Virus record (IMG/VR): IMGVR_UViG_3300045597_000172
Source of the DNA: a virus
Lineage: Duplodnaviria; Heunggongvirae; Uroviricota; Caudoviricetes
DNA length: 64,000 nt
Reading direction: 5' to 3' (one strand)
Translations under genes and position numbers: made by a program
The notes under the pieces: model-generated
Database searches by the model: none
Seen by the model: only the letters and a program-made list of their open reading frames with translations
Told to the model about the DNA's origin: nothing
In this document: in pieces, positions 34,857 to 61,255 of the stretch
Numbering within the stretch: position 1 is the first letter of the stretch
Layout: each line of letters starts with the position of its first letter

Positions 34857-34921
34857 GAAAACCTATTCCAATTTTACCACGTAACAGCATTCTTTGTCAT
34901 CATGTTTCGATTAAGCGAAAT

Positions 34922-39218: not shown

Positions 39219-39255
39219 ATGCTAATTCCTCACTTTCAAAAGCCGTTCTTCTACC

Positions 39256-39322: not shown

Positions 39323-39334
39323 TCAATTTATGAA

Positions 39335-40129: not shown

Positions 40130-40131
40130 CT

Positions 40132-43477: not shown

Positions 43478-44140
43478 TTATTCTACGCTATTTGCTTTAA
43501 CTGTCACACCATTTGGTAACATATCATTATCAATTCGCATCTGCGAATAATTACCAGCCGTACCTTTAACATTGAAAATCTGCGTCAATGTAGTCAATGA
43601 AGATTCCTGATATAAATCCGACATTGCATGATACGGTATATACGTTACGACCACTTGATAAGTATCAGATCCAGTTACAATAACTTGTGTCCGGACATTT
43701 TTCAACTTCAAATTTGTTGCGACCACGGTTGAACTACCACTGTTATCAACCGGAGCAGTCATAAACGTATCATAGAATTGGCTATCGTGAACAGATCGTT
43801 TAGCTAATCGATAATTAGTTGCATAAGCTGTCGTATTATCAAACGTGGTAATCTGTGTGAAAAATGACGATAACCACTCCACCGATTTAGCTTGTGTAGC
43901 CGTTAAATTAACATCGCCCGCCTTGGGCAAATAAATAACTCGTCGATTTTTCGCAACTAACTTATCTAACTTAGATTGCCAATGATCAACCTGTGCAGAA
44001 ACCTTAACATTATCACGTTCTAAACCCTGCCGTTGATACTGCGTATATCCAATCACAGCAATCATTATCAAACAAACAACCCCAAACAACACATTCCACT
44101 TTGTCAATATCCAATGTTCGCGTGAATCATCTTTAGTCAT
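43478..44140 (-). CDS. bitopic membrane protein, VirB8-like T4SS component (putative)
   Basis: Single N-terminal TM, short coiled coil, then alpha/beta domain; in operon with VirB1-like gene. Confidence 0.5.
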   Translation of the reverse strand: MTKDDSREHWILTKWNVLFGVVCLIMIAVIGYTQYQRQGLERDNVKVSAQVDHWQSKLDKLVAKNRRVIYLPKAGDVNLTATQAKSVEWLSSFFTQITTFDNTTAYATNYRLAKRSVHDSQFYDTFMTAPVDNSGSSTVVATNLKLKNVRTQVIVTGSDTYQVVVTYIPYHAMSDLYQESSLTTLTQIFNVKGTAGNYSQMRIDNDMLPNGVTVKANSVE

Positions 44141-44144
44141 CTGT

Positions 44145-44705
44145 CTAACCTCCTAACGTTTGCTGTAACTGACTACGTCCTGCCTTACTGAAGTAGTATG
44201 AAAAACCAGATAAAACACCAGAATCAGGATTGTAATAAAATGTATATAATTTCATCAATTTATTATCATTGTTGAAAAATTTATAAGACATTACAATCTT
44301 ACCATCACTGTTTTGGCCACCATACGATACCTCACCGTGCCAGTCCTTAATTTGATACGCCACCAATGGTCCAGTAACCAACGAACCATCCGACACCATG
44401 TGCTTCATTTTAGCAAGATTCGTTTTACCATCTTTTGAAGAATTAGAACCCGAATCATGCAGAGCATTGGCATATTTTAAATACTTATTTGCAGCATTAA
44501 CTGCCTTTTGATAATTAGTCGTAATTGTTTTCGTAGTTGGCTTTTTAGTCAATTCATTACGATATTGCGACTTAATACTTTTAAGTTCAGCAATATTAGT
44601 TTGACGATCAACCTGCACACTATGATATGACTCCAACGACCAACCAATTCCAGCAAGTAATGCAATTGCAATCCCGCTCTTTAACAACTGACTACCCAGA
44701 CTCAT
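44145..44705 (-). CDS. bitopic membrane protein, VirB8-like (putative)
   Basis: N-terminal TM, extracellular domain; GAGGTG RBS. Confidence 0.45.
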   Translation of the reverse strand: MSLGSQLLKSGIAIALLAGIGWSLESYHSVQVDRQTNIAELKSIKSQYRNELTKKPTTKTITTNYQKAVNAANKYLKYANALHDSGSNSSKDGKTNLAKMKHMVSDGSLVTGPLVAYQIKDWHGEVSYGGQNSDGKIVMSYKFFNNDNKLMKLYTFYYNPDSGVLSGFSYYFSKAGRSQLQQTLGG

Positions 44706-44716
44706 AAATCCGCACC

Positions 44717-46588
44717 TCACTTTTTAATTGGATTTGCAAAATGATAATGATTCCAATAAATACCGAATGAATCACCGATCGTCGATTCATTGACACCACC
44801 ATCACCGCCGGCTCCACCTTCATTAATCATTTTAGTACCAGTTCCATGATAATCTTCAAGTAAAATTGCCGCATGATCATCACCCGAACCATCTGTAAAA
44901 ATAACTGTTCCAGCTTTGGCTTGTGATTGGTCAACTTCTTTTAAGTATTTACCTTGTTTCATGTAATCATTCATCGAACCGGTAAACCACATTTGATCCG
45001 GAACAGAATAACCGGCTAACTTCAATACCAACCAGACATAGCCAGAACAATCCGTTTGTCCATCTCGTTTAACCTGACTAATCGATGAAATACTCGTATA
45101 CGAACCAGAATTAGAAACATCCGTTCGGTTCGGTTGTGAATAAGTAAAATACCCTAATAAACTTTCAGCCGTCGAAACTATCGAACTCGTATCACCAGTA
45201 TTAGACGAACCACTACATAGAGCCGCATTAACGCCCTCTGCTAACGCCGAATTAGATGTTGCAGTTGATTCACTGCCACCGCCTAAAAGTGACGCTAACG
45301 CGCTGTCATTAGCATGTACACCACTAAGATTAAATGTTGCATACGCTTGTTGAGCATAAGCCTCACGCTTAGGAGCTGATCCATCAGGATCAGACGTATA
45401 TGCTTGCCCAGCTTCAAATGCTGATAAATAAAATCTTAGAGCCGCATCCGCAGGCGAAGACGAACCACTTAAAATTGTTGGTGAAATTGTCTTATACGCA
45501 GAAGCCCACATATCACTTTCGCCCAATTCCTTTGCCATCATCAATAATTGCAACTCCAAACTGCTTGAATCCATGTTTTTTGATTTTGCAAATGACTCTA
45601 ATTCAGTTCGACGGCCACCCGTCCATTGCATCAATCCTTTACCACCATCACCAGAGCCATTAAGAACACTAGTCTGAAATCCTGATTCTTGCGCCATGTT
45701 ACCCATTATTCCGGCAATTGCATTCCCAGAAAAACCTAGACTTTGTAACTTTGCCGCAACAGCTTTCGCGTTTGTATATTGCGTACTACCCGACTGTGTC
45801 CAAGCCGCACCATCAGCACCGCCTGACGTTGCACCGCTATAACTTTGAGATCCATTGTTACGTGTCGTACAGACAGAACCAGAATCCAGTGGCTTATTAC
45901 TATTGTAAACATACATTCCGCCTAACAACCCGGCACCTAATGTTGACGTCAAGGCCACATGCAAAATTATACGAGCAGTCTTTTTCTTAATCGTGATGTT
46001 AGACTTTTTACCTAACTTAATAATGCCAGAAGTCGCTTTATTGGTAAGATTTTCATAACCGCCCTTTAACTTACCACCCGCAGCCTTAGCAGCTTTCGGT
46101 GCATTGTTGCTTAACGATTTCAATCCAGATGTAATCCCGGATGACTTCTTATCACCATCTTGATGATCGCCACCGCCATTTAAACCAGATTGTCCACTCG
46201 CGTTTTTTGCACTGTCAGGTAAACCCGATTGCATTGCACCCGTACTGGCATCAGAAGCTGCCGGATTACCCGTTTCACCAACACCCGCATTCTTATTATT
46301 ATCAGTTAAAGGTGATGCCAAACTTTTAGCGCCGGATTGTGCAGCAGATCCCGCTGGACTGTTAGATAAAGAATTACCGATCCGATCTAAATTTGGATCT
46401 TTACCAGTACGCAATCCGTTACCTGAACCTTGATTACTTCCATGATTACCGTTACTAGGTAATTTAGATTTTGCATCAGACAGATTCTTATCACGTCCAC
46501 TATCGGCTTTACCAAGTTTGCCAGCCGCATTTTTCAAATCTTTCGAATTATCATTGGCCACCACCGTCACTCCCTTCAATTTAATCAA
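44717..46588 (-). CDS. VirB1-like conjugative cell-wall hydrolase: TM + phage-tail-lysozyme + NlpC/P60 (CHAP-like)
   Basis: AIAGIMGNMAQESG...GLMQWTGGR lysozyme; TDCSGYV ... HAAI peptidase; true start probably GTG near 46564. Confidence 0.85.
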   Translation of the reverse strand: MIKLKGVTVVANDNSKDLKNAAGKLGKADSGRDKNLSDAKSKLPSNGNHGSNQGSGNGLRTGKDPNLDRIGNSLSNSPAGSAAQSGAKSLASPLTDNNKNAGVGETGNPAASDASTGAMQSGLPDSAKNASGQSGLNGGGDHQDGDKKSSGITSGLKSLSNNAPKAAKAAGGKLKGGYENLTNKATSGIIKLGKKSNITIKKKTARIILHVALTSTLGAGLLGGMYVYNSNKPLDSGSVCTTRNNGSQSYSGATSGGADGAAWTQSGSTQYTNAKAVAAKLQSLGFSGNAIAGIMGNMAQESGFQTSVLNGSGDGGKGLMQWTGGRRTELESFAKSKNMDSSSLELQLLMMAKELGESDMWASAYKTISPTILSGSSSPADAALRFYLSAFEAGQAYTSDPDGSAPKREAYAQQAYATFNLSGVHANDSALASLLGGGSESTATSNSALAEGVNAALCSGSSNTGDTSSIVSTAESLLGYFTYSQPNRTDVSNSGSYTSISSISQVKRDGQTDCSGYVWLVLKLAGYSVPDQMWFTGSMNDYMKQGKYLKEVDQSQAKAGTVIFTDGSGDDHAAILLEDYHGTGTKMINEGGAGGDGGVNESTIGDSFGIYWNHYHFANPIKK

Positions 46589-46664
46589 AAGTCACCAAAC
46601 TAGACACTTTATACCTATTTTACCAGACAAACAAAAAAAATAACATAGCACAATCTCAAAACAC

Positions 46665-46693
46665 AAAAAAAACAAGGAACAAATCGTTCCTTG
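46665..46693 (-). terminator. terminator downstream of giant RNAP gene
   Basis: CAAGGAAC-GATTT-GTTCCTTG + T run on minus strand. Confidence 0.8.
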
Positions 46694-46709
46694 CTCAAAC
46701 TAACTATTA

Positions 46710-49700
46710 TCACAACTCAGGACCTTTGACAGTTGCCTGTGCTTTCGTGCCATTGTCAGATGCAACACCAACTTGATGATGCTTATCATAAAACGATACC
46801 GCATTTTCAATCGCATTCTGACGGATCCGATTCAACTTGTACTTTTGTAAATTACCACGAACATCATGTAACGTTTGTGCAACCGTATCATTAGTTGTCA
46901 TCTGTACATAATATGCATTCGTTAACTTACGTTGATTCGTAACACCATCAAATAACGAAGCACCAACATTTTCTTGATACTCTTTGCCAAGATCATTGAC
47001 CCTCGAAATAAAATCATTCCGATAATCAGTTGGATTTTCATTAGCTTTAACTAAACCATTCTTAGTCTTATCACTAACCGCATTCTTCGAAACCGCAGTC
47101 TGCAAAAATTCCATACCAACTTGACCGTTAACTGTACCACCCGTTACATTATGAACCGTAATTGGTGACCAGTAATTACCGTTAAGAATCTCAGCAACCC
47201 GATCGTAACTACTTCCAACTGAACTCTTAGCAGTATTAACCGTTTCAGTAGTTCCGTTATCAACGCCCTGCCATTTTCCAGTCAACGTATCACCAGCAAT
47301 TTCAACCGAAGTTGGTTTTGGTGTTTCGAGACCCTGAACAAGCTCGGTACGAACTTCCTCAAGCAACCGGCCCGTAACGTTTTGACCTTTAGTTGCATCA
47401 AAAACATCACCACCAGAAACATCTTTTAACGACATCCCTGCGCCATAAACACTGCCACGCTTACTTTCAGCTTCAACCAACGAAGCATTACCAGTATCAC
47501 GCAATTTCGTATAGACATACGTATTTTGCGAAAACTTAGCCATCATCCCGGCTTTCAAGACGCTTGGTGAAACAGTATTCCAAGCCTTATCATCAAAGTT
47601 CTTAACCGCATCTGCCGCAGACTTCCATGGATTCTTTGCACCATCAGGTTCAATTTCCAAAATCTTAGATGCCTGAACATCATCCTTAAACATCAATGCT
47701 TTTGCATAACTGAAATATTGTTCAACCGAATTAAAATTACGAGGATGATCATCATGAACGTGAATATCATGAACATCATCATCAATGTTAACCTGTGCCT
47801 TAAATGGCTGAGCATTCAAATTAGAAAATGGAGCATATGCACCATAAAAAGCAATCGTTTGAGTATCTTTATTTTCAACCATACCATAACGGCCAGAATG
47901 ATCAACCCGAAGATCACGTTGATACATCTTATCTGCTAACGACTTAGCTTGTCGAATTTCACCATCCGGAATTTGTGGAGTTGCAGTACGTGATACATTT
48001 GTCTTAGCCTTCAATTCAGCTAATACTGCATGACTGCTTGGCAAACCAGTCTGTTGACGCTTAGACTCCGTATCATCACGGTGCTGCAAATTCAATTGGA
48101 ATTCATCCATAACTTCACCAACCATTGAATCCTGCTTAGCCGCATACTGTTGACGTTTTACTTGTTGATGAACTTTATCTTGATACGTATTGAATTTTTC
48201 GACATTCTTCATATTGTTTTTAACAATATTTGTCAAAACTTCTTGCGTACCCGCATCAGGAACCGCTACAAATTTAACTTCATCCGGATTACCCAAACTA
48301 CGTGACAATGCAGAATTAAGAACAACCGTATCGTCTTTGACGTTATCACTAACATTGATATTTAACGCAACATCACAATTATCATCGTTCGTCTTTAACT
48401 GCAACTTATTCCAATCGTGACGATTTCCTAACGAACCATTTTCGATTCCAAGCTCATTAGCAACCGCCTTAGAAATAATCACAGTGTTAAATGGAACATC
48501 ATCAGCAACATTCGGATGATTTACAATCGTACTCTTAGCAACATCTAACTTATCCGCCATAGTCAACGTATCAACTACTGAATTCAACGAATTATCACGC
48601 TGTGATAGACTTAACTGCTTATTTAACTGGTCAGCAGATAAATTACCAAACACGGATTCTCGAATATATGAACCCGAATCACCAAACAAGTTAGCCGGAA
48701 CATAATCTTCCTGATCTTGCTTAGTTAATTCTTCAGTAATACCCGCAAAACCATGCATGTTAATCTTAGCCGTAATTGTTGCAAATCCACCGTCTTTAGT
48801 AGCATCTTCGATTGAACGAATTTCCTTAGTTGGACTCTTAGGGTCAACTAAAACATCAGCTAAACGTTCAAAGTTATGACGATCAACACCAAGGCCCATT
48901 CCATTGTCTTTGTCATTGTACAAGAAATCCATAATCTCAACAAATTCATCACGCGTGACTTTATCTGGTTGATTATCTTTTTCCGCTTTCAACATTGGAA
49001 CTTGAACCTGACGAATGTCTTTACCTTGCTTATCAGCAATTCGCTGACGCAAATCTTTCATGAAATCATCACGAAGATATGGCTGACTAGCTTCATCAAC
49101 AGTCGTCCTAAACTCAGTTAACTGCTGTGCATTCTTAGGATCAATCTTAACACCAATTGCATTTGCAACATCCATGACTTGGTCATCAGTGAAATCATTA
49201 CTTAAAATACTCTTTGGATATTCCCGTAATGTCTGATCTGTACCCGGAACCTTATAGTCACGTAAAGCTGCGGCACGTAAAGCAACATCCGACGGATCAT
49301 TACCCAATCGACCTTGACTTTCCGGTCCCAACAAGGCAAACGATGGATAAACTTTATTTGGAAAATTACCACGTAACAATTCGCCAAGTGGTTCCTGCAA
49401 AATTTCAGAAACACGACCAGCCATAACTGGATCACGTTTAATCGAAAGTACCTTTTGCGTACCAGCCTGACCGATTGCAGCCGCAGAATGCATTCCCAAA
49501 TTACTACTATTCATCATCACAGCCGTAATCTTTTGTTGCGTCGAACCGGGAACCCCTGTCATATCACTCTTAATCTTAGTAGCACGCTGTACAGCTAACA
49601 AGGTATCATGCAAACCAGTCAATTCACGTTCATAAGCATTACGTGCATTAACATCTAACTTACCATCGACAACCTGAGCTTCACCCATTGCGCGTACTTC

Positions 49701-52700
49701 ACTAAACAACGGTTTCTTCATGTAACCATCAATCAAGCCCGTAACAGCACTTGATTTACCTTTAGCACCTTCGTTAGCAAATTTCATCAATGATGCACGT
49801 AACGTATCTTCACTCGTATAATCAACACCATCATTCCGCAACATCGAAACTTCACCTTGACTAATTTGAACCTCACCATTAGCATCCCGGCTAGTTTCAA
49901 AACCACGCGTACGTTGAACAATTTCATCAACAACTTGACGTGCGCCACGATAATCACCGTTGTCATAACGAGTTTTAATTTCGTTATCAACTAACATCAA
50001 CAAGAAATCACCGTCATTAAAATCGGGATGTCCATCCTTATCAAGTTTCGTTAACTCACCATTTTCATCAAACCATGAATCATCAACGACATCTCGACGC
50101 ATACTCTCCAAAGCCTGCTTCCGGAAACCGGGATCTAAGAAATTACCACTGACAACATTGCCATCTCGACCAGTTACATCATAATCATTGCTTGTATTGA
50201 CCGCCATTTCAACGATTTCAGCATTGATATTCAACAATGTAGACTTTTGAGAATTATCCAACATCCAACGGTCAACTTCCATGATTGAACCAAGTTCACG
50301 TTGTGCACCCGCATCTGGCATAGACGTCAATCCCAAGTTATCACCATCAAAATCGGCATCCATTAATGCGGCCATTACTGGACTAATACGAACACCCGTA
50401 AGTGCATCATTAATCTTAACTCGGAAGCCTAACGAACCTTGTTCACGCCAAACTGGATCACGATGGACATGTAAATATCCCCAATCAGAATGACCATCGA
50501 CATGTGCCATGCCATCTTCACCAGTTACAAAATTCAAACGTTTAGCAATTGCTGGTGAAATTTCAATAACATCCATTGGCAATTCGGGATTAGCAGAAAC
50601 CTGACTTGTTACAGAATCTTCAGCATAACCACCTAAAACATAATTACGGAAGAATCCATTTTTAGGACTGCCACCACCAAATGCAAAACGATTAGCTTCA
50701 GCATTAATCCGACTAACAGATCCTTGAATATTAAGTTCCTTAGCCAATTGTTCATTAATCTTAGCTTGTACCGCATCATCACCGTGAGCCAAATCAGCAT
50801 CTTTAGTAGCCTTAACTAAGACTTCGTATTGTGCCAAGTTAGTTCCCAAATTCTGATACAAACGGTTAAAGTCAGAAATCACAGTGGTATCATCCATCGC
50901 AATTGTATTAACCCGCATCCGTTCTGGCAAAATATACAACGAATTTGTACGTTTTCCACCAGCAGTCGTTACCGTAACACCCTCTGGTAATCGTAAAACA
51001 CCACCGTCAGGTAATTGCTGCAAGAAATCTTCACCCGCATTGTATTTGTCCGGTGCCATCATATCAGTATTTGGCGCAATTGCACCCGTACGACGAGAAA
51101 CTGAACGTAACGTACGTAAGAAAGTTACCGATGCTGGCTTCAACTCACCATTTTGATCAAGGCCAACAAATTTTTGCGAACGTGCACTAGAAACCTTATT
51201 AGAAGCAGATTTACTAAACGTCATATCTCGATTAATCAATCCATGATAAGAACGCTTGATCTTCTGCAAAACATCCGGCTGAATAACATATTCAGTTTCA
51301 ACTGTTTCACGCGCAATCTTATCATAATCGGCTTGTTCAACTCGATCAGGTAATAAATCAACACCCATTGCAAGCATCGATTCACGCAACGTTTGCAAAT
51401 TCTGGCCATTACGACGATGCCAATTACCAACAATATGTGCACCCTTAGCATTATCACCGTTATTCAATAAAATACTCAACTTACGACCAGTATCATCATT
51501 TGGCTTATCATATAACGTAACCTTATGGTTAATCGTTTGGTTCGTAATAATTAACTTACCAGAATTAATCGTAGCGTTAGTAGCAACAACTTCGCCAGTT
51601 TCACGATATTGTCCGTCACCATCAACCCGCACACGTTTATATGTCATTGGCTTCGAAGATGGACGAGTCAGATACGTATATCCAGTAGCACCGTTATTAC
51701 GTGAAATTTGACTCATCTCGTTCATAACAACTTGCAAATCGGGATGTTGCTTAAACAACTCTACAATATCTAATAATCCATGCTTATCTGCTTCTGCTAA
51801 ATCCATATCAGGATCAATCACATGCGAAATCGTTGCCTTATTACCACCGTTATCAGAAAGTTTATCACCAATTGTTAACGAACGATAAATTGGAAGACCG
51901 TTTCCATCAACCTGATCAGAAATTTGATGCGCATCGGCAAATGCCTTTGAAACTACCAAACCATCTTCCATTGAAAATGCACCAAGCGCCATCGTAGCTA
52001 CTTTAACATCATCAATAGTTTCATGACCCTTAATTGCTTGTTCCTTTGAAACTGGTTGACGGTCACCGGCATTTTTCAAAGAATCATCGAAAAACTCAGT
52101 ATTTTCAATTGGTGTACCAGATGCAACACCAACAATCTTGCCATTTGCATCTTTCATATATGAACCATCAGCATTACGAAATGCATTAGGTAAAACTCGG
52201 CCGTCATCAGTTACTTGGGCACCCTCAACTAAATAAGTCAACAACCCAAACATCTTACCTTGTCCAGTCATATTATCAGAAATTAACAAATTACCAGACT
52301 CATGTGCAACTTCACCAACACCATGACCACCATACACACTAATTGGATCATGCAAATAACGAATAACATCCAACGTAGTTTCTTTAGCATCCTGCGGATT
52401 TGTCAATAATCCATTAGCTTTCATTTCAGCTAAGCCATCTTCAAATCGTTTCATGTACGAAATAACTTCAGTTGTCTTAGTAGCCGCTAATGCAGCATCT
52501 TCCAAACGTACCGCATTCAATTCAGTTTCACGTTTAGCCTGACTCATTTCATCAACGGTATTATTAAGCGATGATTCTTCTACACGATTACCAAGAACTT
52601 CATTATGAAGTAACTTATTCATAATCGTATTAGAGTTATAACGGGTAATCGTACCGACATCACGTGTAGAAATGATTGTATCAACCGCTTGCCCAACTTC

Positions 52701-55700
52701 ACGGAATAACGCTTGATCATATCCCATTACACGTAACCGATTAAAATGACCTAAGCCGTTACGTTCTTCATCACGGAAACTTTCTTTACTCCAATTGCCG
52801 GATGCATCACGGTCAGGATTCAAAATCCAACCACGATAACGAGCTTGATACGTAAATTGTCCAGACGTAACATCCTGTCCATCAAATCGGTTATACGCCG
52901 TCCGAATTAAGCCATCATGATCAGGTGCAAAAATTTGTCCAATCGTACCTTCAACCGGCTGATAACGAACATCATTTGTACCATCTTTGTCAGCACGATA
53001 AACACGACCCTTTGCAGTTGTTTCATAACCGTGTTTATTAATTGACGTTGGCTTAGCCGTGGCTTCATCATACTTTTTATAAGTAGCACCACCACGTTGT
53101 TGTTCATGAGTTGCGGCCTTATAAACCGGAACCTTAGCTACAAAATGAACAACACCTTGCGCATCAATCTTAATATCATCATTACCAACAATAACCCCAC
53201 GAGTTTCTAATCGTGATTTTACAATTTCCAACGAACGTGCTTTAAACTCGTTAGGTGAAACATCTCGAATTAACCGTGAACCATCACGACTAAATGCAGA
53301 CGGATTAGGGTTTTCAGCAGGATCAAAACTAAATTTCTTACGTCCTGCTTTAACATCTTCCATATATTGACGTAACTTGAACTCATCACTATTAGGATCC
53401 TGATCCGCAGCTCGTAAATCATCAATCGTCATTGCTGTTGACTTATTAAAATCAACATCTGGAGTTGCATCAGCCGACTGGTAACGCTCACCAGCTTTAA
53501 CTGAATCAACATACGCACGTAATCGTTTTGCATTCGGAGAATCAAACTGAACTGCACGTTCCTGAACCGTTTCACTGGCATAGCTATTATCACCAACTAA
53601 ATTATCTGCATATTCACTCTTAGAAACGGCCTGTGCCATCATAAACGCATACAGTGTCGAATTAGCACCAGCTTCAGTTTGCTTAATAACTTGCGTCAAA
53701 TTCAAATCAGAATTTAATTCAAATTTGCTAAGTAATTCATTATGCAAATCAAGATAAGCATGTTGTGCTTTAGTCTTAGCCATCGGATCTGAAATCATTC
53801 CCAATCGTGCATATTGCTCACGATAAGACATCTTATTCAAATTGTCATCTAAGTCTAAGCCATCACCTTCAACATCCGACAAAATTGTCTTAGCATCGTC
53901 AGAATCAAGTAACAATGATTTCATCTTACTGTGCAATGCCATAATTTCTTGCTGTTCATAACCTTTAGATGTTTTAAACTTAGCCGTTTCCATATACTGA
54001 TGTTCATAATCGGACAATGATAAGTCCATGTAATCGTCATGCAAAACAGCATTCTTAACCGGCGCTTTACCAAACGTCTTATTCATCTGCTCAACTAAGC
54101 CATCAAACACTTCTAACCGACGAGCTTTTAATACCGGATCAGTTACATTTGCAACCAACGCTTGTCGATTTTGAATTAATTCATGATCATCAACACTATT
54201 TTGGTCAGCCGTAGCAACTAATAAGCCATTTTTAAATGCAGTCAATACTAATTTCTGGCTTTCTAAATCAAGTACATCACGACGAACCTTTTCAGTTCCA
54301 TGACCAGATTCCGATAATGTAACATCCGTAACATCATTTGACAAAATATGTTTAAACGTCTTCTGTGCTTGAGCATACGTCCGATTTGAATTATCTTGAT
54401 CCGGACCCATCAACATCTTCAAATAATTAATACGAGCATCACGATAGGCAACGTTGATTAATTCATTCGCATCATCGCCATCGACTTGATATGGATCCAT
54501 CCGTGGATTAGTTGTAGCTGTATCCACACGGTCATCACCAACAATTGCACTGCGTAAATCCAAATGAATTTTACCCTGAACATCATCTTGTACAGAACTC
54601 GTAGCAATTTCATCACCGTCTGTACCATCAATTACCTGAACTGGAGCAATTTCAGCATCAACCTTACCCAAATTAATTTGTGCTTGATAACTATTTGAGT
54701 TAGAAGAACTTAAACGATTAACAGTTTCAATCTTTGCATCTGGTAAATACGACTGTGTACCCTTTGATAAGACGTTTTTATTAATTCCCAACAAGTTGGC
54801 AATTCCAGCAACAGCTAATTTATTCTTTGTGACTTGATCCAAACCAACATAACGTGCTTGAGCAACCATTCGTGAACGTTGCACATCAGGTACATTATTA
54901 GCACCGAAATCATCACGACGTGGTTTGAAAGCTTCCAATCGACGTTCACTATTCCGGAAAAGAACCGTTCCGTCATTTTTATGAACAATTGGTGACATTT
55001 CAGATCCGTCTTTATTGATTGACGACGCAATGGCATGCTGCATTTCTAAGCCAGTACCCATCTCAGCCTCAGTTTCGAATGGCAAACGAGTCAATTCAGG
55101 ACTCCAATAAATACCCTCACGCGTACGGATTTGACCAGTCAAGTACGGATGTTGCGGATCAACTAAGGTAATCAACGCGGCCGAATTATCATTCAAACGT
55201 AAAGCAACTGAATTGTCCGAACCCTGTACAACACTGTAATCAATCCCTGCATCATGAACCAACGTCAAAACCGTAATCATTGTTTCAACATCTGATGGTG
55301 AAACTTCATGAATCTTACCATCAGCACTACGTTGTCCAATCAAATCAACCGTAGCTTTATCAGAACCGGCAATCAATACAGAATCACTAAGACTATCTGT
55401 CAACAACGATTGCAAACTTTTACGACGACCGGCATTCGGCATTACTGAACCCAACGCGGTCATTAATTCATTAACCGAAACCGGGCTTTTTTCATCGATG
55501 TTAGAATTACGCCACCAGTAACGACTCTGTGTAACACCTTTAGGCGTATAAGCATACTGATGATGGTCTGAACTTGGTGCAAAAACGTATTCTACACGCG
55601 TTTGAGATGGTACTGCTGCAACATTATCCGACGAAGTCTTATCAGCATTAGTTTCGGCATCAGCCTTTTTCTTCTTTTTAACATTTTGGTGATTATCACT

Positions 55701-56687
55701 AATTCCAAAATCTTCGGGACGAACAACAGTGGCATCTTTACCGGTGAATTGTTTAATATCAAACATTCCATTAAACGTACCGCCATGAACTTCACCATCA
55801 ACCGTTGGAGCAGTAGCAAACGCAATCCCTTCATCCGCATTCATGAACATTGTCTGATTGCGTTTTTCATAGACAAACCGTTGCTTACCGTTAGCAGAAC
55901 GTTCAGCATGACTAGAAACCTGATCAGCCATTCCCAACATACTGTAATACAACCCCTGTTTATTTTGATCAGGTACCGTAAATCCACGATCATTCTTAAT
56001 AGTTTTTCCATTGTCGTCATATTGAGCAAGCGTGTATGCTTGTGTATTCATTGGCAAATCAGCTACAAACCGAATTTTATCAGCACCTAACCGATAAATA
56101 TCATTTCGTAACCATGTACTATCACCGTGAGCCTTATGATCTTGAATAAGTTTTGCATAAGCTGGATTCTGAGCAACAAGTTCTTCACGTCGCTCTAATC
56201 CCTCTTGATATTTAACATTCAAAATAGCACGTGCCCAAACCAAATCTGCACCGTCAGCCATTCCTGAATGAGCTTCAACATAACCATGTTGGCGAATCCG
56301 ATCACGTAAAATATTCTCAAACGCATCTTGAACTTTCGCCCATGGATTTGTAGGAACGCCATCGGTCTGTGCCGAACCTTTGTACGTCATATCACCTAAG
56401 TTATAACCATCACTGCTTAAATCTTTAGGACGATGTCCGGTCAATGCAACAACGTATGGTTTTAAACCGTTTGATTGAGGATCCTGATTTGGTCGCCAAT
56501 CATGCAGCATCCGAATCTGTCCACGACCAATTGCATCCAAGCTCGTCATTATCTTTGGCGTAGCATAACCGCTTGATTGAATATCAGACAGTCGATGCTG
56601 ATTTGTACCAATATATCGGTCAGCCGTATACGGACGGTCTCCCCATGAATAAGTTGAACCTTTTATATTTTCTGCCAAAATAGTCAC
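46710..56687 (-). CDS. 3325-aa polyvalent protein: SLOG/YspA + single-chain fused beta-beta' two-barrel RNA polymerase + degenerate barrel duplicate + NADAR
   Basis: Collinear beta motifs FSMEDGLVVS, GDKLSDNGGNKATIS, DLQVVMNEMSQISRNNG, then beta' motifs YILPERMR..SDFNRLY, KNGFFRNYVLGG, HRDPVWREQGSLGF, MDADFDGDNL (50340-50360), trigger loop SAAAIGQAGTQKVLS; N-terminal LTGHRP..SGMADGADLVWA; C-terminal FSNL..SVEQY..AKF..LVEA..GQNVTGRLLEEVR. Confidence 0.92.
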   Translation of the reverse strand: MTILAENIKGSTYSWGDRPYTADRYIGTNQHRLSDIQSSGYATPKIMTSLDAIGRGQIRMLHDWRPNQDPQSNGLKPYVVALTGHRPKDLSSDGYNLGDMTYKGSAQTDGVPTNPWAKVQDAFENILRDRIRQHGYVEAHSGMADGADLVWARAILNVKYQEGLERREELVAQNPAYAKLIQDHKAHGDSTWLRNDIYRLGADKIRFVADLPMNTQAYTLAQYDDNGKTIKNDRGFTVPDQNKQGLYYSMLGMADQVSSHAERSANGKQRFVYEKRNQTMFMNADEGIAFATAPTVDGEVHGGTFNGMFDIKQFTGKDATVVRPEDFGISDNHQNVKKKKKADAETNADKTSSDNVAAVPSQTRVEYVFAPSSDHHQYAYTPKGVTQSRYWWRNSNIDEKSPVSVNELMTALGSVMPNAGRRKSLQSLLTDSLSDSVLIAGSDKATVDLIGQRSADGKIHEVSPSDVETMITVLTLVHDAGIDYSVVQGSDNSVALRLNDNSAALITLVDPQHPYLTGQIRTREGIYWSPELTRLPFETEAEMGTGLEMQHAIASSINKDGSEMSPIVHKNDGTVLFRNSERRLEAFKPRRDDFGANNVPDVQRSRMVAQARYVGLDQVTKNKLAVAGIANLLGINKNVLSKGTQSYLPDAKIETVNRLSSSNSNSYQAQINLGKVDAEIAPVQVIDGTDGDEIATSSVQDDVQGKIHLDLRSAIVGDDRVDTATTNPRMDPYQVDGDDANELINVAYRDARINYLKMLMGPDQDNSNRTYAQAQKTFKHILSNDVTDVTLSESGHGTEKVRRDVLDLESQKLVLTAFKNGLLVATADQNSVDDHELIQNRQALVANVTDPVLKARRLEVFDGLVEQMNKTFGKAPVKNAVLHDDYMDLSLSDYEHQYMETAKFKTSKGYEQQEIMALHSKMKSLLLDSDDAKTILSDVEGDGLDLDDNLNKMSYREQYARLGMISDPMAKTKAQHAYLDLHNELLSKFELNSDLNLTQVIKQTEAGANSTLYAFMMAQAVSKSEYADNLVGDNSYASETVQERAVQFDSPNAKRLRAYVDSVKAGERYQSADATPDVDFNKSTAMTIDDLRAADQDPNSDEFKLRQYMEDVKAGRKKFSFDPAENPNPSAFSRDGSRLIRDVSPNEFKARSLEIVKSRLETRGVIVGNDDIKIDAQGVVHFVAKVPVYKAATHEQQRGGATYKKYDEATAKPTSINKHGYETTAKGRVYRADKDGTNDVRYQPVEGTIGQIFAPDHDGLIRTAYNRFDGQDVTSGQFTYQARYRGWILNPDRDASGNWSKESFRDEERNGLGHFNRLRVMGYDQALFREVGQAVDTIISTRDVGTITRYNSNTIMNKLLHNEVLGNRVEESSLNNTVDEMSQAKRETELNAVRLEDAALAATKTTEVISYMKRFEDGLAEMKANGLLTNPQDAKETTLDVIRYLHDPISVYGGHGVGEVAHESGNLLISDNMTGQGKMFGLLTYLVEGAQVTDDGRVLPNAFRNADGSYMKDANGKIVGVASGTPIENTEFFDDSLKNAGDRQPVSKEQAIKGHETIDDVKVATMALGAFSMEDGLVVSKAFADAHQISDQVDGNGLPIYRSLTIGDKLSDNGGNKATISHVIDPDMDLAEADKHGLLDIVELFKQHPDLQVVMNEMSQISRNNGATGYTYLTRPSSKPMTYKRVRVDGDGQYRETGEVVATNATINSGKLIITNQTINHKVTLYDKPNDDTGRKLSILLNNGDNAKGAHIVGNWHRRNGQNLQTLRESMLAMGVDLLPDRVEQADYDKIARETVETEYVIQPDVLQKIKRSYHGLINRDMTFSKSASNKVSSARSQKFVGLDQNGELKPASVTFLRTLRSVSRRTGAIAPNTDMMAPDKYNAGEDFLQQLPDGGVLRLPEGVTVTTAGGKRTNSLYILPERMRVNTIAMDDTTVISDFNRLYQNLGTNLAQYEVLVKATKDADLAHGDDAVQAKINEQLAKELNIQGSVSRINAEANRFAFGGGSPKNGFFRNYVLGGYAEDSVTSQVSANPELPMDVIEISPAIAKRLNFVTGEDGMAHVDGHSDWGYLHVHRDPVWREQGSLGFRVKINDALTGVRISPVMAALMDADFDGDNLGLTSMPDAGAQRELGSIMEVDRWMLDNSQKSTLLNINAEIVEMAVNTSNDYDVTGRDGNVVSGNFLDPGFRKQALESMRRDVVDDSWFDENGELTKLDKDGHPDFNDGDFLLMLVDNEIKTRYDNGDYRGARQVVDEIVQRTRGFETSRDANGEVQISQGEVSMLRNDGVDYTSEDTLRASLMKFANEGAKGKSSAVTGLIDGYMKKPLFSEVRAMGEAQVVDGKLDVNARNAYERELTGLHDTLLAVQRATKIKSDMTGVPGSTQQKITAVMMNSSNLGMHSAAAIGQAGTQKVLSIKRDPVMAGRVSEILQEPLGELLRGNFPNKVYPSFALLGPESQGRLGNDPSDVALRAAALRDYKVPGTDQTLREYPKSILSNDFTDDQVMDVANAIGVKIDPKNAQQLTEFRTTVDEASQPYLRDDFMKDLRQRIADKQGKDIRQVQVPMLKAEKDNQPDKVTRDEFVEIMDFLYNDKDNGMGLGVDRHNFERLADVLVDPKSPTKEIRSIEDATKDGGFATITAKINMHGFAGITEELTKQDQEDYVPANLFGDSGSYIRESVFGNLSADQLNKQLSLSQRDNSLNSVVDTLTMADKLDVAKSTIVNHPNVADDVPFNTVIISKAVANELGIENGSLGNRHDWNKLQLKTNDDNCDVALNINVSDNVKDDTVVLNSALSRSLGNPDEVKFVAVPDAGTQEVLTNIVKNNMKNVEKFNTYQDKVHQQVKRQQYAAKQDSMVGEVMDEFQLNLQHRDDTESKRQQTGLPSSHAVLAELKAKTNVSRTATPQIPDGEIRQAKSLADKMYQRDLRVDHSGRYGMVENKDTQTIAFYGAYAPFSNLNAQPFKAQVNIDDDVHDIHVHDDHPRNFNSVEQYFSYAKALMFKDDVQASKILEIEPDGAKNPWKSAADAVKNFDDKAWNTVSPSVLKAGMMAKFSQNTYVYTKLRDTGNASLVEAESKRGSVYGAGMSLKDVSGGDVFDATKGQNVTGRLLEEVRTELVQGLETPKPTSVEIAGDTLTGKWQGVDNGTTETVNTAKSSVGSSYDRVAEILNGNYWSPITVHNVTGGTVNGQVGMEFLQTAVSKNAVSDKTKNGLVKANENPTDYRNDFISRVNDLGKEYQENVGASLFDGVTNQRKLTNAYYVQMTTNDTVAQTLHDVRGNLQKYKLNRIRQNAIENAVSFYDKHHQVGVASDNGTKAQATVKGPEL

Positions 56688-56722
56688 TTCTCTTCCTATT
56701 TTTTATTCACTACATGCCATTC

Positions 56723-56778
56723 CTGACACAGAAAAAGCGATGCCATCATTGAAATATATCAAGAATAACATCGCTCCT
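56723..56778 (-). terminator. long hairpin between pilin-like gene and RNAP gene
   Basis: Minus strand AGCGATG...TTGA-TATATT-TCAA...CATCGCT-TTTT. Confidence 0.6.
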
Positions 56779-56835
56779 TCGTTAAATTAGTTACGTATTT
56801 CTTTATGTTTAGTTTACAGTTATTACAGCTGAACG

Positions 56836-57186
56836 CTAAAACCCAAGAAATCCGAGCAATGGTGTTACGTAGTTAATCGCACCAAAGACTTCGCCCCAAG
56901 TATCGCTAAAGTTGCCTTGGATGGTATTTACCGCACCACTCATCAGTAAGATAGCCCCAATAACGAAAGCGATACCGGAACTCCAATACCACTTAGCTTT
57001 CTCACGTGATTTAACTACGGCAATTACTAAGAAGATAACTGCTACAATAATGACAATAGCACCACCGAAACTAGCAACAACATCCCACTTAGATTTTAAA
57101 TTACTGGCTCCTCGTGAAAGCGACGAGAATAAACCCGACGCAACAATAGGAGCATTTGCAAGTAATGACGTCATAAAACTTGCCAC
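56836..57186 (-). CDS. small membrane protein, VirB2/pilin-like (putative)
   Basis: 116 aa with two long hydrophobic helices after an N-terminal leader; tra context. Confidence 0.55.
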   Translation of the reverse strand: MASFMTSLLANAPIVASGLFSSLSRGASNLKSKWDVVASFGGAIVIIVAVIFLVIAVVKSREKAKWYWSSGIAFVIGAILLMSGAVNTIQGNFSDTWGEVFGAINYVTPLLGFLGF

Positions 57187-57285
57187 GTCCTTTCACCTAG
57201 AATTTTCTAAAAGTATTACTACTTTCATGTTTACATTATAACAAACATCTAACCCATAATACTAGTCCTAAATCGACACATTTTA

Positions 57286-57303
57286 ATGATATTTCATCAA
57301 ATT
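57286..57303 (+). promoter_or_regulatory. operator-like motif copy 3 (ATGATATTTCATCAAATT)
   Basis: 1 mismatch to copy 1; upstream of pilin-like gene promoter region (TGtTATAAT on minus strand near 57235-57243). Confidence 0.5.
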
Positions 57304-57358
57304 AGACATATTATCTCAAAATGGTGCCAAAAATATTGAAATTTCAACAAGTTATTAC

Positions 57359-57565
57359 TTACTTAAACAAATCCCAAATACTAAATGTTGTTTTACGATA
57401 AACAGCACTATATAATTTACGTTTGGGATGCAACCATCCCATGCCACGTTTACCATATTCCGGAATTATCGCACGTTTAACACTTCGCGTTAATTGGCCT
57501 TTAGTACGAGCTGAAAAAGACTTTTTCCAACTTGGTTTACGCATACCAACCTTCACAATCATCAC
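57359..57565 (-). CDS. conserved basic phage/mobile-element protein
   Basis: GMRKPSWKKSFSART...YGKRGMGW...KTTFSIWDLFK family pattern. Confidence 0.75.
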   Translation of the reverse strand: MMIVKVGMRKPSWKKSFSARTKGQLTRSVKRAIIPEYGKRGMGWLHPKRKLYSAVYRKTTFSIWDLFK

Positions 57566-57644: not shown

Positions 57645-58520
57645 CTACCACCAACCTTGACTTTGCCATGCCGCTTTTGCAGCATCCCAACTACCGTAAC
57701 GACTCTGCATATACTGAGTAGCCACACGTTCTTGATTAGCAGCCGAATAATCACCGTGTAAATAACTCTTATCTAACTGATAACGTCCATAATAACGACC
57801 ATTCTGTGCTGTATACGATCCACCAGATTCACGTTGTGCAATCCATTCTTTAGATGCACTTGAATTAGTTGTCGAAACAGTGTTCGTATTAGTATTTGAA
57901 GTCGTCGTTGCACTTGGTGTAACGGTATTCGAAGTACTTTGAGCTGGCGCAGTTGACGCAATACTTGGCTGTGCTACGGAACTTGCTGGTGCAGCAGACG
58001 ATGCTACACTACTTGTTGGAACAACCGCACTTGCAGTTGATGCTGTACTTGATGCCGGTACGGTTGACGTTGCAACACTCGTTGTCGCTTCAACAACCTT
58101 TAATTTCAAAGTTTGATTAATATAAATTACATCAGACGTTAAACCATTTGCAGCTTTTAAATTTGCAACAGTTGTTCCAAATCGATTTGCAATCGATGAT
58201 AATGTATCGCCCGCTTTAGTTACATACGTTGTTGCATTCGTATCAACCGCACCAGACGTTGTACCATCGATTTTAACTTGCTGTCCAACATAAATTAGAT
58301 CTTCATTACTAATTCCATTTGCAGATGCTAATGCCGATACCGTAGTATTCGCATTCTTAGCAATTGTCGATAAATTCTCATTAGCTTGTACAGTATGTAC
58401 CGTATCTGCATTCGCTGAAACACCGGTAGCTGCAACCCCCGCTAATCCCGCTACCAAACCTACACCTAACAGGGCAAGCTTATGTGACGAACCCTCGTTC
58501 ATCCTTTCTGCTGTACTCAT
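57645..58520 (-). CDS. secreted 2xLysM protein with aggregation-promoting-factor (Apf) lysozyme-like C-terminus
   Basis: Signal peptide; HTVQANENLSTIA and YVTKAGDTLSSIA LysM; S/T/A linker; AKEWIAQRESGGSY..GRYQL..RYGSW..GWW. Confidence 0.9.
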   Translation of the reverse strand: MSTAERMNEGSSHKLALLGVGLVAGLAGVAATGVSANADTVHTVQANENLSTIAKNANTTVSALASANGISNEDLIYVGQQVKIDGTTSGAVDTNATTYVTKAGDTLSSIANRFGTTVANLKAANGLTSDVIYINQTLKLKVVEATTSVATSTVPASSTASTASAVVPTSSVASSAAPASSVAQPSIASTAPAQSTSNTVTPSATTTSNTNTNTVSTTNSSASKEWIAQRESGGSYTAQNGRYYGRYQLDKSYLHGDYSAANQERVATQYMQSRYGSWDAAKAAWQSQGWW

Positions 58521-58632
58521 TGGACCACTCCTCTTTTTATTATCAAAAATATACTTATTACATTATCTACATTAACACTTATCAACAATAATTCCATAAC
58601 AGCAATGTCACAATTAGATTACAGACTGTAAC

Positions 58633-58664
58633 AAAAAAAGACCTGAAAATTTTCAAGTCTTTTT
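58633..58664. terminator. terminator
   Basis: AAAAAGAC.TGAAA-AT-TTTCA.GTCTTTTT. Confidence 0.7.
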
Positions 58665-58681
58665 AAAAGTTCTAAAATTAT

Positions 58682-61255
58682 TTAACGATTGCTTGATGAA
58701 GCACTTGTTGCAGAAGAAGATGGTGCACTATTTGAATTCGAAGATGCACTTGATCCATTTTGCGACGAACTACTTGCAGAAGAACTAACCGAAGATGAAT
58801 TACTACTACTGTTTTGGCTAGAACTACTTTGAGAGCTTTCACTCGATGAACTAGAACTTGGTTGTGACGAAGATTGTGATTGCGTTTGATACATAGGAAC
58901 CGCAACGGTCTTAACATTGTTATTATTTGAACTGTTATGAACTAACATTGAACCAGTTGCAAAACCACCAGTTAATCCAAGTAACATCAACAAGACTGAA
59001 ACTCCTAAATATCCATTACGACGACGTTTGCTATCACGATCAAGCTTATCCTCAGTATGCTTCATATCTTCACGAAGTAAGTTTAATTCCTTACGATGAC
59101 TTTCATCACGTTTATCTAACTTCTCATCATACACTTCGACTTGCTTATTCATCTTAGCTTTAAGTTCATCACGTTCCTTAGTTACCTTAGTCAATTCACC
59201 TTGAACTTGTCCAACAGCTAATTGCTGAGTTGAAGTTGCCTGTGATTGAAGAGTTTCCAATTGACGTTTGTAATTTTCGGCATTTTCAGCCAATGCAGCC
59301 TTATGATTATCCTGTAATTCCTTAATTCGTTCATTAAGAACTTCGACAGTAGTATCATGACGAGCAACATCTGCTTGATCGGCCACACGTTTGTTTTCAT
59401 CATCACGAGATTGTTTGGTATATTGTTCCAACTCAGCAATCTTATTACGATGTGCAGTTTCCAAAACGTTCTGAGCTTTGCGGAATTCCATTGCACCTTG
59501 TTCCATGACTTCCATGTAAACTTTAGATGCCGCCGTTTGAGCATACTCTTGACTGTTATGCTTAATTTCCGTAATATTATTTGCAATTTCTTGACGTTTA
59601 GCTGCCACACCTTGCTGAATAATATCATTTTTATGCTGATTCAATTCCACTCGTTTCTGATTAAACTGCGCTTCAACCTCAACGATTGCCTGCTGACGTG
59701 CATTCTCCAAATCACTATTAAACTGATCTTCTAACGTATCAAGCTCATCTTTAACTAAATCTTGTGCTTGAAGACGTAAACCTTCATCGTCATTCAAATC
59801 AGACTGCAATTCTTTTAACGTTTTACGGTTTGACTTAATCTGAGACCCATCTTCTTGCACTTTATTATGCAGTGCATCCAACATACTAGAACGTTGTGTT
59901 TCAAACCATTGTCGTAAACGAGCCTTACGTTCTTTTAAGACTGACTCTAATTCAGCATTAGCTTTACGACGTAGTTCATTTTCATGATGAATTCGTCCAG
60001 TTGGATCATTAGTTTCATCTGCTAAAGGAATTGGCGTTACAGACAATGGCTTCAAATACGCATCTAAAAATTCACGGTCAGAAACTGAAACTTTCAAATC
60101 AGATAATGTTCTAACAGATGACGTCATAATCGCATTATCGGCTTCAAGGTCATCCCTTGAAACTGTTTCGACGTATGGATTTTTCTTTTTAGGTGTTGGA
60201 TCGGCCTTTGGCGCAACCTGTGATTCAACTGGCTCAACAACAGTCGATGCAGTAGACTGCGTTGCCTGAGAGACTACTGCCGGTTGTGAAGTTTCTGATT
60301 CTTCTGATTCAACATTACCAGACTCAACTGCCTCAGACTCCGTACCATCTTGAGAATCGTCAGCATCGTCCTCAGCATCATTCAACTCATCAGCAGCAGA
60401 AATACTAAAACCTTGATCCGCATTGTCACTAGTAACAGTTCCAGCCGATTGCGGATCTGTTTCACCATCAGAATTTGCAAACGATGAAATCGTTGAATTA
60501 GATGCCTTACCATCATCATCTTCAAATTCACGCGTTGCAGCCATTACGTTCGGATCAATCGTACCCGTTTCATTATCATCAAGTTTCAAAGGATCAGACG
60601 TAGTTGGAACATTTTCATCAACTTTCAATACATCATTTTCAACTTTGAAATTAAGTTTACCATTAACATATGCCCACCATTGTGCCATCGGAAGACGAAC
60701 ATCTGTCAGTCGCAAATGAAGTTCATCATTGTCAATGTTCAATAATCCAACCAACCAACCTTTACTATACTTGGCAAAAGTTGGAAAATCATTCAAAACT
60801 TCAAACGCATCATGCATTGGTAATAACGTAATATACTGCTGATCTAAACTTTCAGTTGTCACAACTGGTAAAAACCCAGAAGCACCTGAACTGGTTTTTA
60901 AACCAACACTAACTTGGCCAAACTGATCTTTATTCTCACGATTGCCCAATCCACTATCTTCAAGGGTTGCTTCATCCATAACAAACACTGGATACTGCGG
61001 ACCGTCGCTAAATTGTAACGCCGTCGCACGAACAAAGTCCTTATCTGAATTAACAACTGATTTATCACCATGTACCGCATCAATAACAGTTGCTGGTACA
61101 GACTCACTAATTTTCATTTGCGAAATTAATGACTTTTTCTTACGACGGGTATGTAATTTACCCCGTGATTTCTTTTCTGATCCAACATCAGACTGATTTG
61201 TATCTGATTCAGGATTCTTGTTCGCTTTCTTATGGAACTTAAAAATTCCCATCAA
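58682..61255 (-). CDS. large acidic/coiled-coil membrane protein with Ser-rich extracellular tail
   Basis: Acidic linker, long coiled coil, TM YLGVSVLLMLLGLTGGFATG, C-terminal poly-Ser. Confidence 0.8.
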   Translation of the reverse strand: MMGIFKFHKKANKNPESDTNQSDVGSEKKSRGKLHTRRKKKSLISQMKISESVPATVIDAVHGDKSVVNSDKDFVRATALQFSDGPQYPVFVMDEATLEDSGLGNRENKDQFGQVSVGLKTSSGASGFLPVVTTESLDQQYITLLPMHDAFEVLNDFPTFAKYSKGWLVGLLNIDNDELHLRLTDVRLPMAQWWAYVNGKLNFKVENDVLKVDENVPTTSDPLKLDDNETGTIDPNVMAATREFEDDDGKASNSTISSFANSDGETDPQSAGTVTSDNADQGFSISAADELNDAEDDADDSQDGTESEAVESGNVESEESETSQPAVVSQATQSTASTVVEPVESQVAPKADPTPKKKNPYVETVSRDDLEADNAIMTSSVRTLSDLKVSVSDREFLDAYLKPLSVTPIPLADETNDPTGRIHHENELRRKANAELESVLKERKARLRQWFETQRSSMLDALHNKVQEDGSQIKSNRKTLKELQSDLNDDEGLRLQAQDLVKDELDTLEDQFNSDLENARQQAIVEVEAQFNQKRVELNQHKNDIIQQGVAAKRQEIANNITEIKHNSQEYAQTAASKVYMEVMEQGAMEFRKAQNVLETAHRNKIAELEQYTKQSRDDENKRVADQADVARHDTTVEVLNERIKELQDNHKAALAENAENYKRQLETLQSQATSTQQLAVGQVQGELTKVTKERDELKAKMNKQVEVYDEKLDKRDESHRKELNLLREDMKHTEDKLDRDSKRRRNGYLGVSVLLMLLGLTGGFATGSMLVHNSSNNNNVKTVAVPMYQTQSQSSSQPSSSSSSESSQSSSSQNSSSNSSSVSSSASSSSQNGSSASSNSNSAPSSSATSASSSNR

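Follow-up and report, generated by a model that had tools for sequence, protein, structure and literature searches.

Fusions of the β and β′ subunits of RNA polymerase (RNAP) that are encoded by mobile elements have been known as orphans since 2003 (Iyer, Koonin and Aravind), and the function of these 'NCgl1702' proteins has been called 'enigmatic' (PMC2919709, PMC7824862). YonO of the Bacillus subtilis prophage SPβ is another single-chain, two-barrel, element-encoded DNA-dependent RNAP of Bacillota (PMC5467207). The virion polymerases gp50 of phage N4 and gp66 of crAss-like phages are giant multidomain proteins that are delivered with the DNA and start transcription in the new host. Conjugative elements encode polyvalent proteins that are predicted to travel with the DNA, with transferred primases as the precedent, and the idea that invading elements bring enzymes to 'jump-start transcription' has already been published (PMC5512222). 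Conjugation itself is thought to rely on the RNAP of the recipient for first transcripts and, in Gram-positive elements, for single-strand-origin priming. Here we describe a giant gene at 46710–56687 on the minus strand of a 64,000-nt stretch of DNA (IMG/VR record IMGVR_UViG_3300045597_000172, filed under Caudoviricetes; the whole stretch is referred to as the window). Its product, P0001, is a polyvalent protein of 3325 residues built around a single-chain β::β′ RNAP, and the relatives of this polymerase accompany one clade of conjugative coupling proteins. Unless noted otherwise, the genes, domains and signals located below lie on the minus strand of the window.

A Single-Chain Two-Barrel RNA Polymerase

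P0001 is a β::β′ fusion of the DNA-dependent multisubunit (two-barrel) RNAP type, since its catalytic residues are invariant, the profile of its family matches β′, its relatives have RNAP matches in Pfam, and its predicted structure has the RNAP fold and recurrent matches to β-subunit lobes. An exhaustive HMMER search with residues 1251–2450 returned 367 cluster representatives at E ≤ 1e-3, 93 of them at E ≤ 1e-30; most relatives are 1700–2200 residues long, with a subgroup of 2750–4050 residues. An alignment of 58 relatives from this search, together with the β′ profile match, AlphaFold2 (AF2) model, Foldseek and VIA, delimits a catalytic core at residues ~1440–2450 (49338–52370). The alignment identifies the β-type barrel motifs ED (1574–1575), GDK (1607–1609), Lys1617 and Arg1663 (51699–51968) and, together with the motif itself, the β′-type Mg-binding loop DADFDGD (residues 2110–2116; 50340–50360). 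Invariant across the 58 sequences are Asp1575, Gly1607, Asp1608, Lys1609, Lys1617 and Arg1663 on the β-type side, and Arg2076, Pro2078, Asp2110, Asp2112, Asp2114, Gly2115, Asp2116 and Lys2309-Gly2310 on the β′-type side; the ED pair is kept in the family consensus, with only Asp1575 of the pair invariant. To judge by these residues, the active site is apparently intact and the enzyme catalytically competent.

The family profile matches bacterial β′ (E 1e-24) over β′ residues 235–803 (~570 residues), up to the bridge helix. The AF2 model of residues 1400–2450 (pLDDT 91, pTM 0.85) matches β′/Rpb1 with a Foldseek probability of 1.00 and VIA Z scores of 16–17 over 390–440 residues (root-mean-square deviation 3.3–4.7 Å); it aligns with the largest subunits of bacterial, archaeal, eukaryotic and viral RNAPs and reaches Rpb1 residues ~1106–1237. 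The largest-subunit fold continues beyond the barrel, with switch 2, the bridge helix and the trigger-loop region, and we take the motif TQ..LQIKHD, by its resemblance to the cellular motif, to be the trigger-loop base. P0001 itself falls below curated Pfam thresholds, in that Rpb1_2 (residues 2075–2137) scores 16.8 bits against a cut-off of 25.3 and Rpb2_6 is absent; its membership therefore rests on profile, motifs and fold, which together uphold the original prediction that the giant gene encodes a real RNAP. The relatives P0014, P0054, P0118 and P0046 score above the Pfam gathering score for RNA_pol_Rpb2_6, and several small relatives have Rpb2_6 followed by Rpb1_2 in one chain, both above their gathering scores.

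Ahead of the core, residues ~1110–1400 (52488–53360) form a probable β-subunit N-terminal lobe region. Its VIA-align matches are modest but recurrent (plastid 8qma_A, Z 7.2; Xanthomonas 6j9e_C, 6.1; vaccinia 6rfl_B, 5.3; phage AR9 7s00_c, 5.3; Pol IV 7eu0_B, 4.8) and fall on N-terminal parts or lobes of the second-largest-subunit chains of RNAPs. When the barrel (residues 2035–2137) is used as a phmmer query, it gives a second match in the close relative P0003, at residues 2721–2814, corresponding to residues ~2735–2830 of P0001 (~48198–48485); this match fits a putative internal degenerate copy of the β′ barrel.

Pairing with One Clade of Coupling Proteins

The gene had been predicted to belong to a transfer cluster, a proposal that was to fall if homologs proved unlinked to conjugation genes. 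They proved linked: a gene for a type IV secretion system (T4SS) coupling protein (T4CP) lies within 10 kb of the polymerase gene in 16 of 18 informative loci, from two phyla. The 16 loci (the window, L001–L007, L013, L015 and L018–L023) comprise the window, Staphylococcus SAP020A, Gordonia pGKT2, Rhodococcus fascians pGS01, a Streptomyces plasmid, Kurthia sibirica, Ligilactobacillus equi, metagenome-assembled genomes (MAGs) of Parvibacter, Oscillospiraceae and Saccharofermentans, and six metagenome contigs. One of the two exceptions, the P0044 contig, has an ambiguous T4CP context; the other is considered below. The T4CP gene of the relatives mostly lies directly upstream of the polymerase gene and co-oriented with it, and is on the opposite strand in the Saccharofermentans MAG. 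The usual order is a gene of an 857-residue protein family, the T4CP gene, zero to two genes, the polymerase gene, a Phage_lysozyme2/CHAP hydrolase gene, genes for two small proteins and a gene for the penicillin-binding protein PBP1A, followed in the window and L015 by a rhomboid gene. The hydrolase gene is found 3′ of the polymerase gene in six loci, the same gene occurring in L003, L004, L007, L015 and L022.

The pairing also holds when approached from the side of the coupling protein. Thirteen plasmids in PLSDB carry the polymerase, and a PLSDB search with an intact long T4CP returned 1017 plasmids, the top 12 of which (30–47% identity, E ≤ 2e-92) all fall within the polymerase-bearing 13; T4CPs ranked after these have at most 27% identity (CD1115-type VirD4). 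The linkage in 16 of 18 loci, the PLSDB pairing and the absence of phage matches (see below) thus make the conjugative context a property of the family and not an accident of the window. These genomic comparisons show that the polymerase family is a hallmark of one Gram-positive conjugation module of an uncharacterised type, and that its partner T4CPs are a specific clade of long (~1270–1410 residues) VirD4-type proteins. In MOB-suite, the plasmids with the polymerase are classed as 'mobilizable' or 'non-mobilizable' despite their T4CP and hydrolase genes, and their mating-pair system appears to lie outside current typing schemes.

The conjugation cluster of Lactococcus cremoris pMPJM1 was published as 'novel', in a paper that makes no mention of an RNAP (PMC6458302). 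A search of the literature for a conjugation-linked RNAP gave no relevant paper, and three features were not found in the literature searched: the almost one-to-one match with a clade of T4CPs in two phyla, the polyvalent versions with SLOG and NADAR, and the C-terminal tip described below.

Two side observations concern individual loci. In L. equi DSM 15833 (L006, 6485–14889) the polymerase is split into open reading frames (ORFs) of 2133 and 665 residues, and other L. equi strains have a single protein of 2801 residues (P0082 cluster). Genes for Clp/AAA+ unfoldases, one with a LAGLIDADG insert, and for ClpP lie near the T4CP–polymerase pair in L020 (1–852) and L021 (3160–5836).

Accessory Modules and C-Terminal Tip

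P0001 combines SLOG, RNAP and NADAR modules in one chain that is encoded next to T4CP and hydrolase genes, which is the architecture of a polyvalent protein. The SLOG/YpsA-like domain at residues 76–327 (55707–56462) is assigned by a BLASTP match (E 8e-21) to a region of P0010 with a precomputed PF06908 annotation, P0001 itself having no Pfam YpsA match at E ≤ 0.01. The L. equi relative P0082 matches Pfam YpsA with an E value of 8e-8 and is named 'SLOG family protein' by NCBI and 'DNA-directed RNA polymerase' by UniRef. The predicted NADAR domain at residues 2950–3116 (47340–47840) matches PF08719 with an E value of 6e-27 (95.3 bits against a cut-off of 35.1, covering profile positions 9–162 of 163) and PDB 8bau with an E value of 5e-6. 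Its position varies within the family: NADAR is C-terminal in P0001, N-terminal in P0008, P0009 and P0011, absent from P0004 and P0005, and encoded by a separate gene directly upstream of P0044.

Residues 332–1109 (53361–55694; AF2 pLDDT 76) are, by phmmer, conserved only among the giant relatives. They gave VIA-align Z scores below 6 and no solved-fold match, and Foldseek found nothing in the PDB at E ≤ 0.001 for the N-terminal body (residues 331–1400) folded as one piece; because its parts were not folded singly, the lack of a fold match for residues 332–1109 is not proof of a new fold. C-terminal to the core, residues ~2565–2660 weakly match the conserved C-terminal domain of small relatives, and a search of a structure atlas (Atlas) with residues 2450–2950 gave no usable match.

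The chain ends in the tip ...VKGPEL (46713–46730), an instance of a family-wide acidic/Gly-hydrophobic-x-hydrophobic motif. The variants include KGPEL in P0001, GGPEL, TGLEL, DDGLAL, DDGLTL and GFELEM in other Bacillota, and EGLGA, EGMGA and YGMGY in Actinomycetota. Glycine occupies position −4 in 32% of 162 family members against a background of 7%, a hydrophobic residue occupies position −3 in 64% against 29%, and a tolerant version of the motif is found at 35% of true C termini and at 6% of random internal cut points. The tip follows polar linkers that cannot be aligned across the family. Such tips are typical of docking peptides, e.g. the C terminus of SSB and the TraD tail that binds TraM, and the acidic-Gly-hydrophobic tip is a candidate docking signal.

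Proposed Role of the Polymerase and Alternatives

The enzyme probably works on transferred DNA, because its relatives nearly always co-occur with one kind of coupling protein. The reading that we favour, to which we assign a probability of roughly 45%, is that the polymerase is exported to the recipient with the DNA and transcribes or primes there. A host-type promoter would drive synthesis of the polymerase in the donor, alongside expression of the transfer genes; the coupling protein would then receive the polymerase, possibly via the acidic-Gly-hydrophobic tip, for export with the DNA. In the recipient it would make RNA on the incoming single strand, in the form of early establishment transcripts, primers for the complementary strand, or both, and this synthesis would be independent of the RNAP and sigma factors of the new host. 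The NADAR domain would strip the ADP-ribose adducts that DarT-type defences put on single-stranded DNA: NADARs undo the ADP-ribosylation of DNA guanines by DarT1, and orphan NADAR-like enzymes serve phages as a counter to DarTG1 (PMC11543638, PMC11825919).

Export is favoured because the enzyme co-varies with the substrate receptor of a T4SS, because it is built like polyvalent proteins that are predicted to enter with DNA (PMC5512222), because NADAR is fused to it or encoded beside it (PMC11543638, PMC11825919), and because the C-terminal tip is conserved. The NADAR and SLOG modules and the conserved tip are together in keeping with an enzyme that acts on DNA as it enters the recipient. We put forward somewhat more tentatively the wider proposal that a whole class of Gram-positive conjugation systems may export its own RNAP, with the tip as the coupling-protein signal and NADAR and SLOG as counter-defence.

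Several observations weigh against export. A polymerase of 370 kDa would need to be unfolded for passage through a T4SS, and its tip matches no established T4SS signal and is clear in only a third to half of family members. The promoters of the transfer cluster in the window are of the ordinary host type. The Lachnospiraceae locus L011, with a distant relative (23% identity), has no T4CP within 10 kb, and in the four Lactococcus megaplasmids among the PLSDB plasmids with both genes the polymerase lies ~35 kb from the T4CP. Finally, the phage-like nucleotide-metabolism genes of this giant element could call for a transcriptase of its own in the resident cell. The polymerase might instead serve as the element's transcriptase in the resident (donor) cell, without being exported, and transcribe a subset of the element's genes, such as the transfer genes or the long co-oriented plus-strand block of the window, independently of host sigma factors; the original prediction had likewise allowed for a role in the donor. 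There is a precedent in YonO, a two-barrel RNAP with which its own element transcribes a single operon (PMC5467207), and likewise in the non-virion RNAPs of jumbo phages; a large element with NrdD/NrdG, DNA ligase, guanylate kinase, NUDIX and methylases, the distance from the T4CP in the Lactococcus megaplasmids, and a palindrome present at three sites in the window, which suggests element-specific regulation, point the same way. However, a general transcriptase is not expected to co-occur strictly with one T4CP clade, and the family is also found inside the transfer operon of staphylococcal plasmids of 55–65 kb. The host-type promoters of the polymerase unit and its neighbouring operons also speak against such a role, and a fused NADAR is hard to account for in a resident enzyme; we consider this role unlikely, though with a real chance of being correct.

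The tight adjacency to the T4CP and the co-variation with it would also be in keeping with an unexported, T4CP-coupled enzyme that serves DNA processing in the donor, either by priming the replacement strand or by opening oriT, through transcription or an R-loop, for loading of relaxase and T4CP. In Gram-positive elements, the priming at single-strand origins is carried out by host RNAP, and primase annotation is absent from SAP020A, a poorly annotated record. The donor replacement strand, however, starts at the nicked 3′ end and needs no primer, neither an oriT nor a relaxase was located near the gene, and the NADAR and SLOG additions better suit conflict with a new host, leaving such a role improbable. 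It is more improbable still, to the point of being hardly tenable, that the element is a phage whose virions package the protein as a polymerase, in the manner of crAss-like gp66 or N4 gp50, or else that the protein is a catalytically dead structural relic. The protein does resemble the N4 virion RNAP in size, the adjoining gene has a Phage_lysozyme2 domain, and the window has phage-like nucleotide-metabolism genes. Against this, neither DNA nor protein matches were found among 50,697 phage records, and no capsid, portal, terminase or tail families were found among the window proteins scanned; relatives occur on typed plasmids with MOBP relaxases, and every catalytic residue is invariant. The phage reading was rejected on the lack of phage-record matches and structural families and on the occurrence of relatives on plasmids.

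If the polymerase does travel with the DNA, it would be a new kind of T4SS cargo and, on plasmids, the equivalent of the virion polymerases of N4 and crAss-like phages, and it would give a function to 'NCgl1702-like' polymerases that have been orphans for 20 years. Its export would account for establishment in distant hosts, with the module common to Bacillota and Actinomycetota, and it would offer biochemistry a compact, sigma-independent RNAP of the multisubunit type. Should the enzyme act only in the donor, its almost one-to-one association with a clade of T4CPs still marks out a conjugation type that is uncharacterised.

Organization of the Window and Expression Signals

The window consists of two blocks, with ~50 mostly small genes on the plus strand in the first 32 kb and larger genes on the minus strand at 32–64 kb. 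The plus-strand block (1–32000) encodes NrdD, NrdG, an ATP-dependent DNA ligase, two orphan DNA methylases, an NS-type nuclease, guanylate kinase, NUDIX, a DHH phosphoesterase and a metallophosphatase, by annotation a phage-like nucleotide-metabolism set on a plasmid-like element. A megablast search with 24 kb gave no match among plasmids or phages.

The giant gene is a single open frame with a GTG start preceded by the ribosome-binding site AGGAAGAG, and P0001 has one cysteine and no transmembrane or hydrophobic segments. The gene upstream (56836–57186) encodes a small membrane protein of 116 residues with two to three hydrophobic helices, conserved in L003, and is the first gene of the polymerase unit. 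Downstream lies the gene for a 623-residue cell-wall hydrolase (44717–46588) with Phage_lysozyme2 (E 3e-29) and NlpC/P60 domains, a VirB1-type partner of Gram-positive T4SSs, followed by two conserved genes (43478–44720) for proteins of 191 and 220 residues without a family match, the longer of which has an N-terminal hydrophobic anchor. The layout is as the original prediction had it, with the giant gene flanked by the 116-residue gene and the hydrolase gene, the T4CP gene on the same strand, a hairpin 5′ and a terminator 3′. Of the labels given there to the neighbours, the VirB1-like hydrolase stands; 'pilin-like' and 'VirB8-like' are unsupported, as the small proteins match no Pfam, NCBIfam or PHROGs family.

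The gene for the VirD4-type T4CP is in two pieces (63588 to the window end, and 61922–63070), recognised by Pfam TraG-D_C, T4SS-DNA_transf and TrwB_AAD_bind and collinear with residues 751–859 and 864–1266 of intact T4CPs of 1270–1290 residues. The interruption at 63071–63587 (~520 nt) has parallels in relatives: L003 (2616–3959) has an ORF of 307 residues inside the gap, and the T4CP of L005, L006 and L020 is in two ORFs. At gathering thresholds, Rfam recognised no RNA or intron families in the window and did not confirm a group I intron in the T4CP gene. Between the T4CP gene and the polymerase unit (57645–61600) lie genes for an HU-like protein, the 857-residue protein, whose family is conserved beside the T4CP in L003, L004 and L015, and a LysM/transglycosylase protein. 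A very basic ORF of ~60 codons (MRKPSWKK...; 57360–57552) is found between the terminator of the LysM gene and the promoter of the polymerase unit. Further downstream (35121–42291) are genes for a PBP1A-type transglycosylase/transpeptidase, glycosyltransferases and a rhomboid protein; PBP1A is also in the cluster of L003, L015 and L022, and the rhomboid in that of L015. A class A penicillin-binding protein as a conserved member of a transfer cluster is unusual among T4SS loci. No VirB4, VirB6 or relaxase genes were recognised inside the window.

The polymerase gene and the 116-residue gene are shown by these signals as a predicted two-gene unit, with a predicted host-type promoter and a terminator at its end. 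The extended −10 promoter TGTTATAAT (57243–57235) lies ahead of the 116-residue gene, together with the palindrome AATGATAT-TCATT (57275–57306), the two spanning 57235–57306. The intrinsic terminator (46670–46696), 14 nt past the stop codon, has a stem of 11–12 bp and a T-run; its fold has a z score of −3.4, and none of 200 shuffled sequences folds equally well. A long hairpin of ~21 bp (56731–56780; z −3.1, 0 of 200 shuffles) between the 116-residue and giant genes is a possible attenuator or processing site. The palindrome, AATGATAT(A/T)TCATT with flanks, recurs at three sites (1240–1271, 34828–34859 and 57275–57306), the last of them just upstream of the promoter of the polymerase unit, and may be the operator of a regulator that the element encodes. 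A 51-nt repeat, 90% identical between its copies at 1270–1320 and 13027–13077, consists of a GC-rich terminator hairpin and a second inverted repeat (TGTGTTTCCAACACA).

Comparison with Known Systems

The N4 and crAss polymerases, which the original prediction had invoked as a parallel, hold as a functional model only; as to enzyme type, P0001 is a two-barrel β::β′ protein and not of the T7/N4 type. Both virion polymerases are packaged in capsids, whereas the P0001 family is encoded beside a T4CP on plasmids. The crAss gp66 protein is also a two-barrel enzyme. It has the fold class in common with P0001, a likeness of class only, the structural matches listed giving no direct comparison with gp66, and it is packaged by a phage, in contrast to the plasmid and T4SS context of P0001. 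The fold of N4 gp50 is T7-like, and a zincin peptidase is invariably joined to it (PMC5512222); P0001 shows neither feature. An N4-like virion RNAP was rejected for P0001 in view of its two-barrel fold, the absence of peptidase and N4-type families in Pfam and PHROGs, and the lack of phage matches.

YonO has only a few residues in common with multisubunit RNAPs and no trigger-loop homology (PMC5467207), whereas the polymerase family aligns with β′ over ~570 residues, including the bridge helix. The extra carboxylate that corresponds to Rpb2-E836 is missing from YonO-like proteins (PMC2919709), and the polymerase family keeps ED in its consensus; moreover, YonO is a transcriptase of SPβ late genes without a conjugation context. 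Membership in the YonO-like or RdRP-like two-barrel enzymes, whose similarity is confined to the two barrels, was rejected for P0001 on the grounds of the ED consensus and the long β′ homology.

The polyvalent proteins and the transferred primases Sog and TraC are similar to P0001 in joining several unrelated domains in a huge polypeptide encoded next to transfer genes, but the RNAP modules in the survey of polyvalent proteins are only of the N4 type and only in phages, and a two-barrel RNAP core is not described there (PMC5512222). Orf6 of the yeast killer plasmid pGKL2 is, like P0001, a plasmid-encoded Rpb2::Rpb1 fusion with the β part before the β′ part and a reduced active-site region of the multisubunit type (PMC2919709). 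It belongs, in contrast, to eukaryotic cytoplasmic linear plasmids and is a resident transcriptase with a separate small subunit and without transfer machinery. The descriptions of NCgl1702-like RNAPs consulted (PMC2919709, PMC7824862) make no mention of a link to a T4SS coupling protein or of SLOG or NADAR fusions. By those published descriptions, the likeness to the present family lies in a large single polypeptide (NCgl1702, 2169 residues, compared with 1700–2200 for most relatives of P0001), in β and then β′ barrels in one chain with switch 2 and funnel elements, and in an actinobacterial and mobile-element origin.

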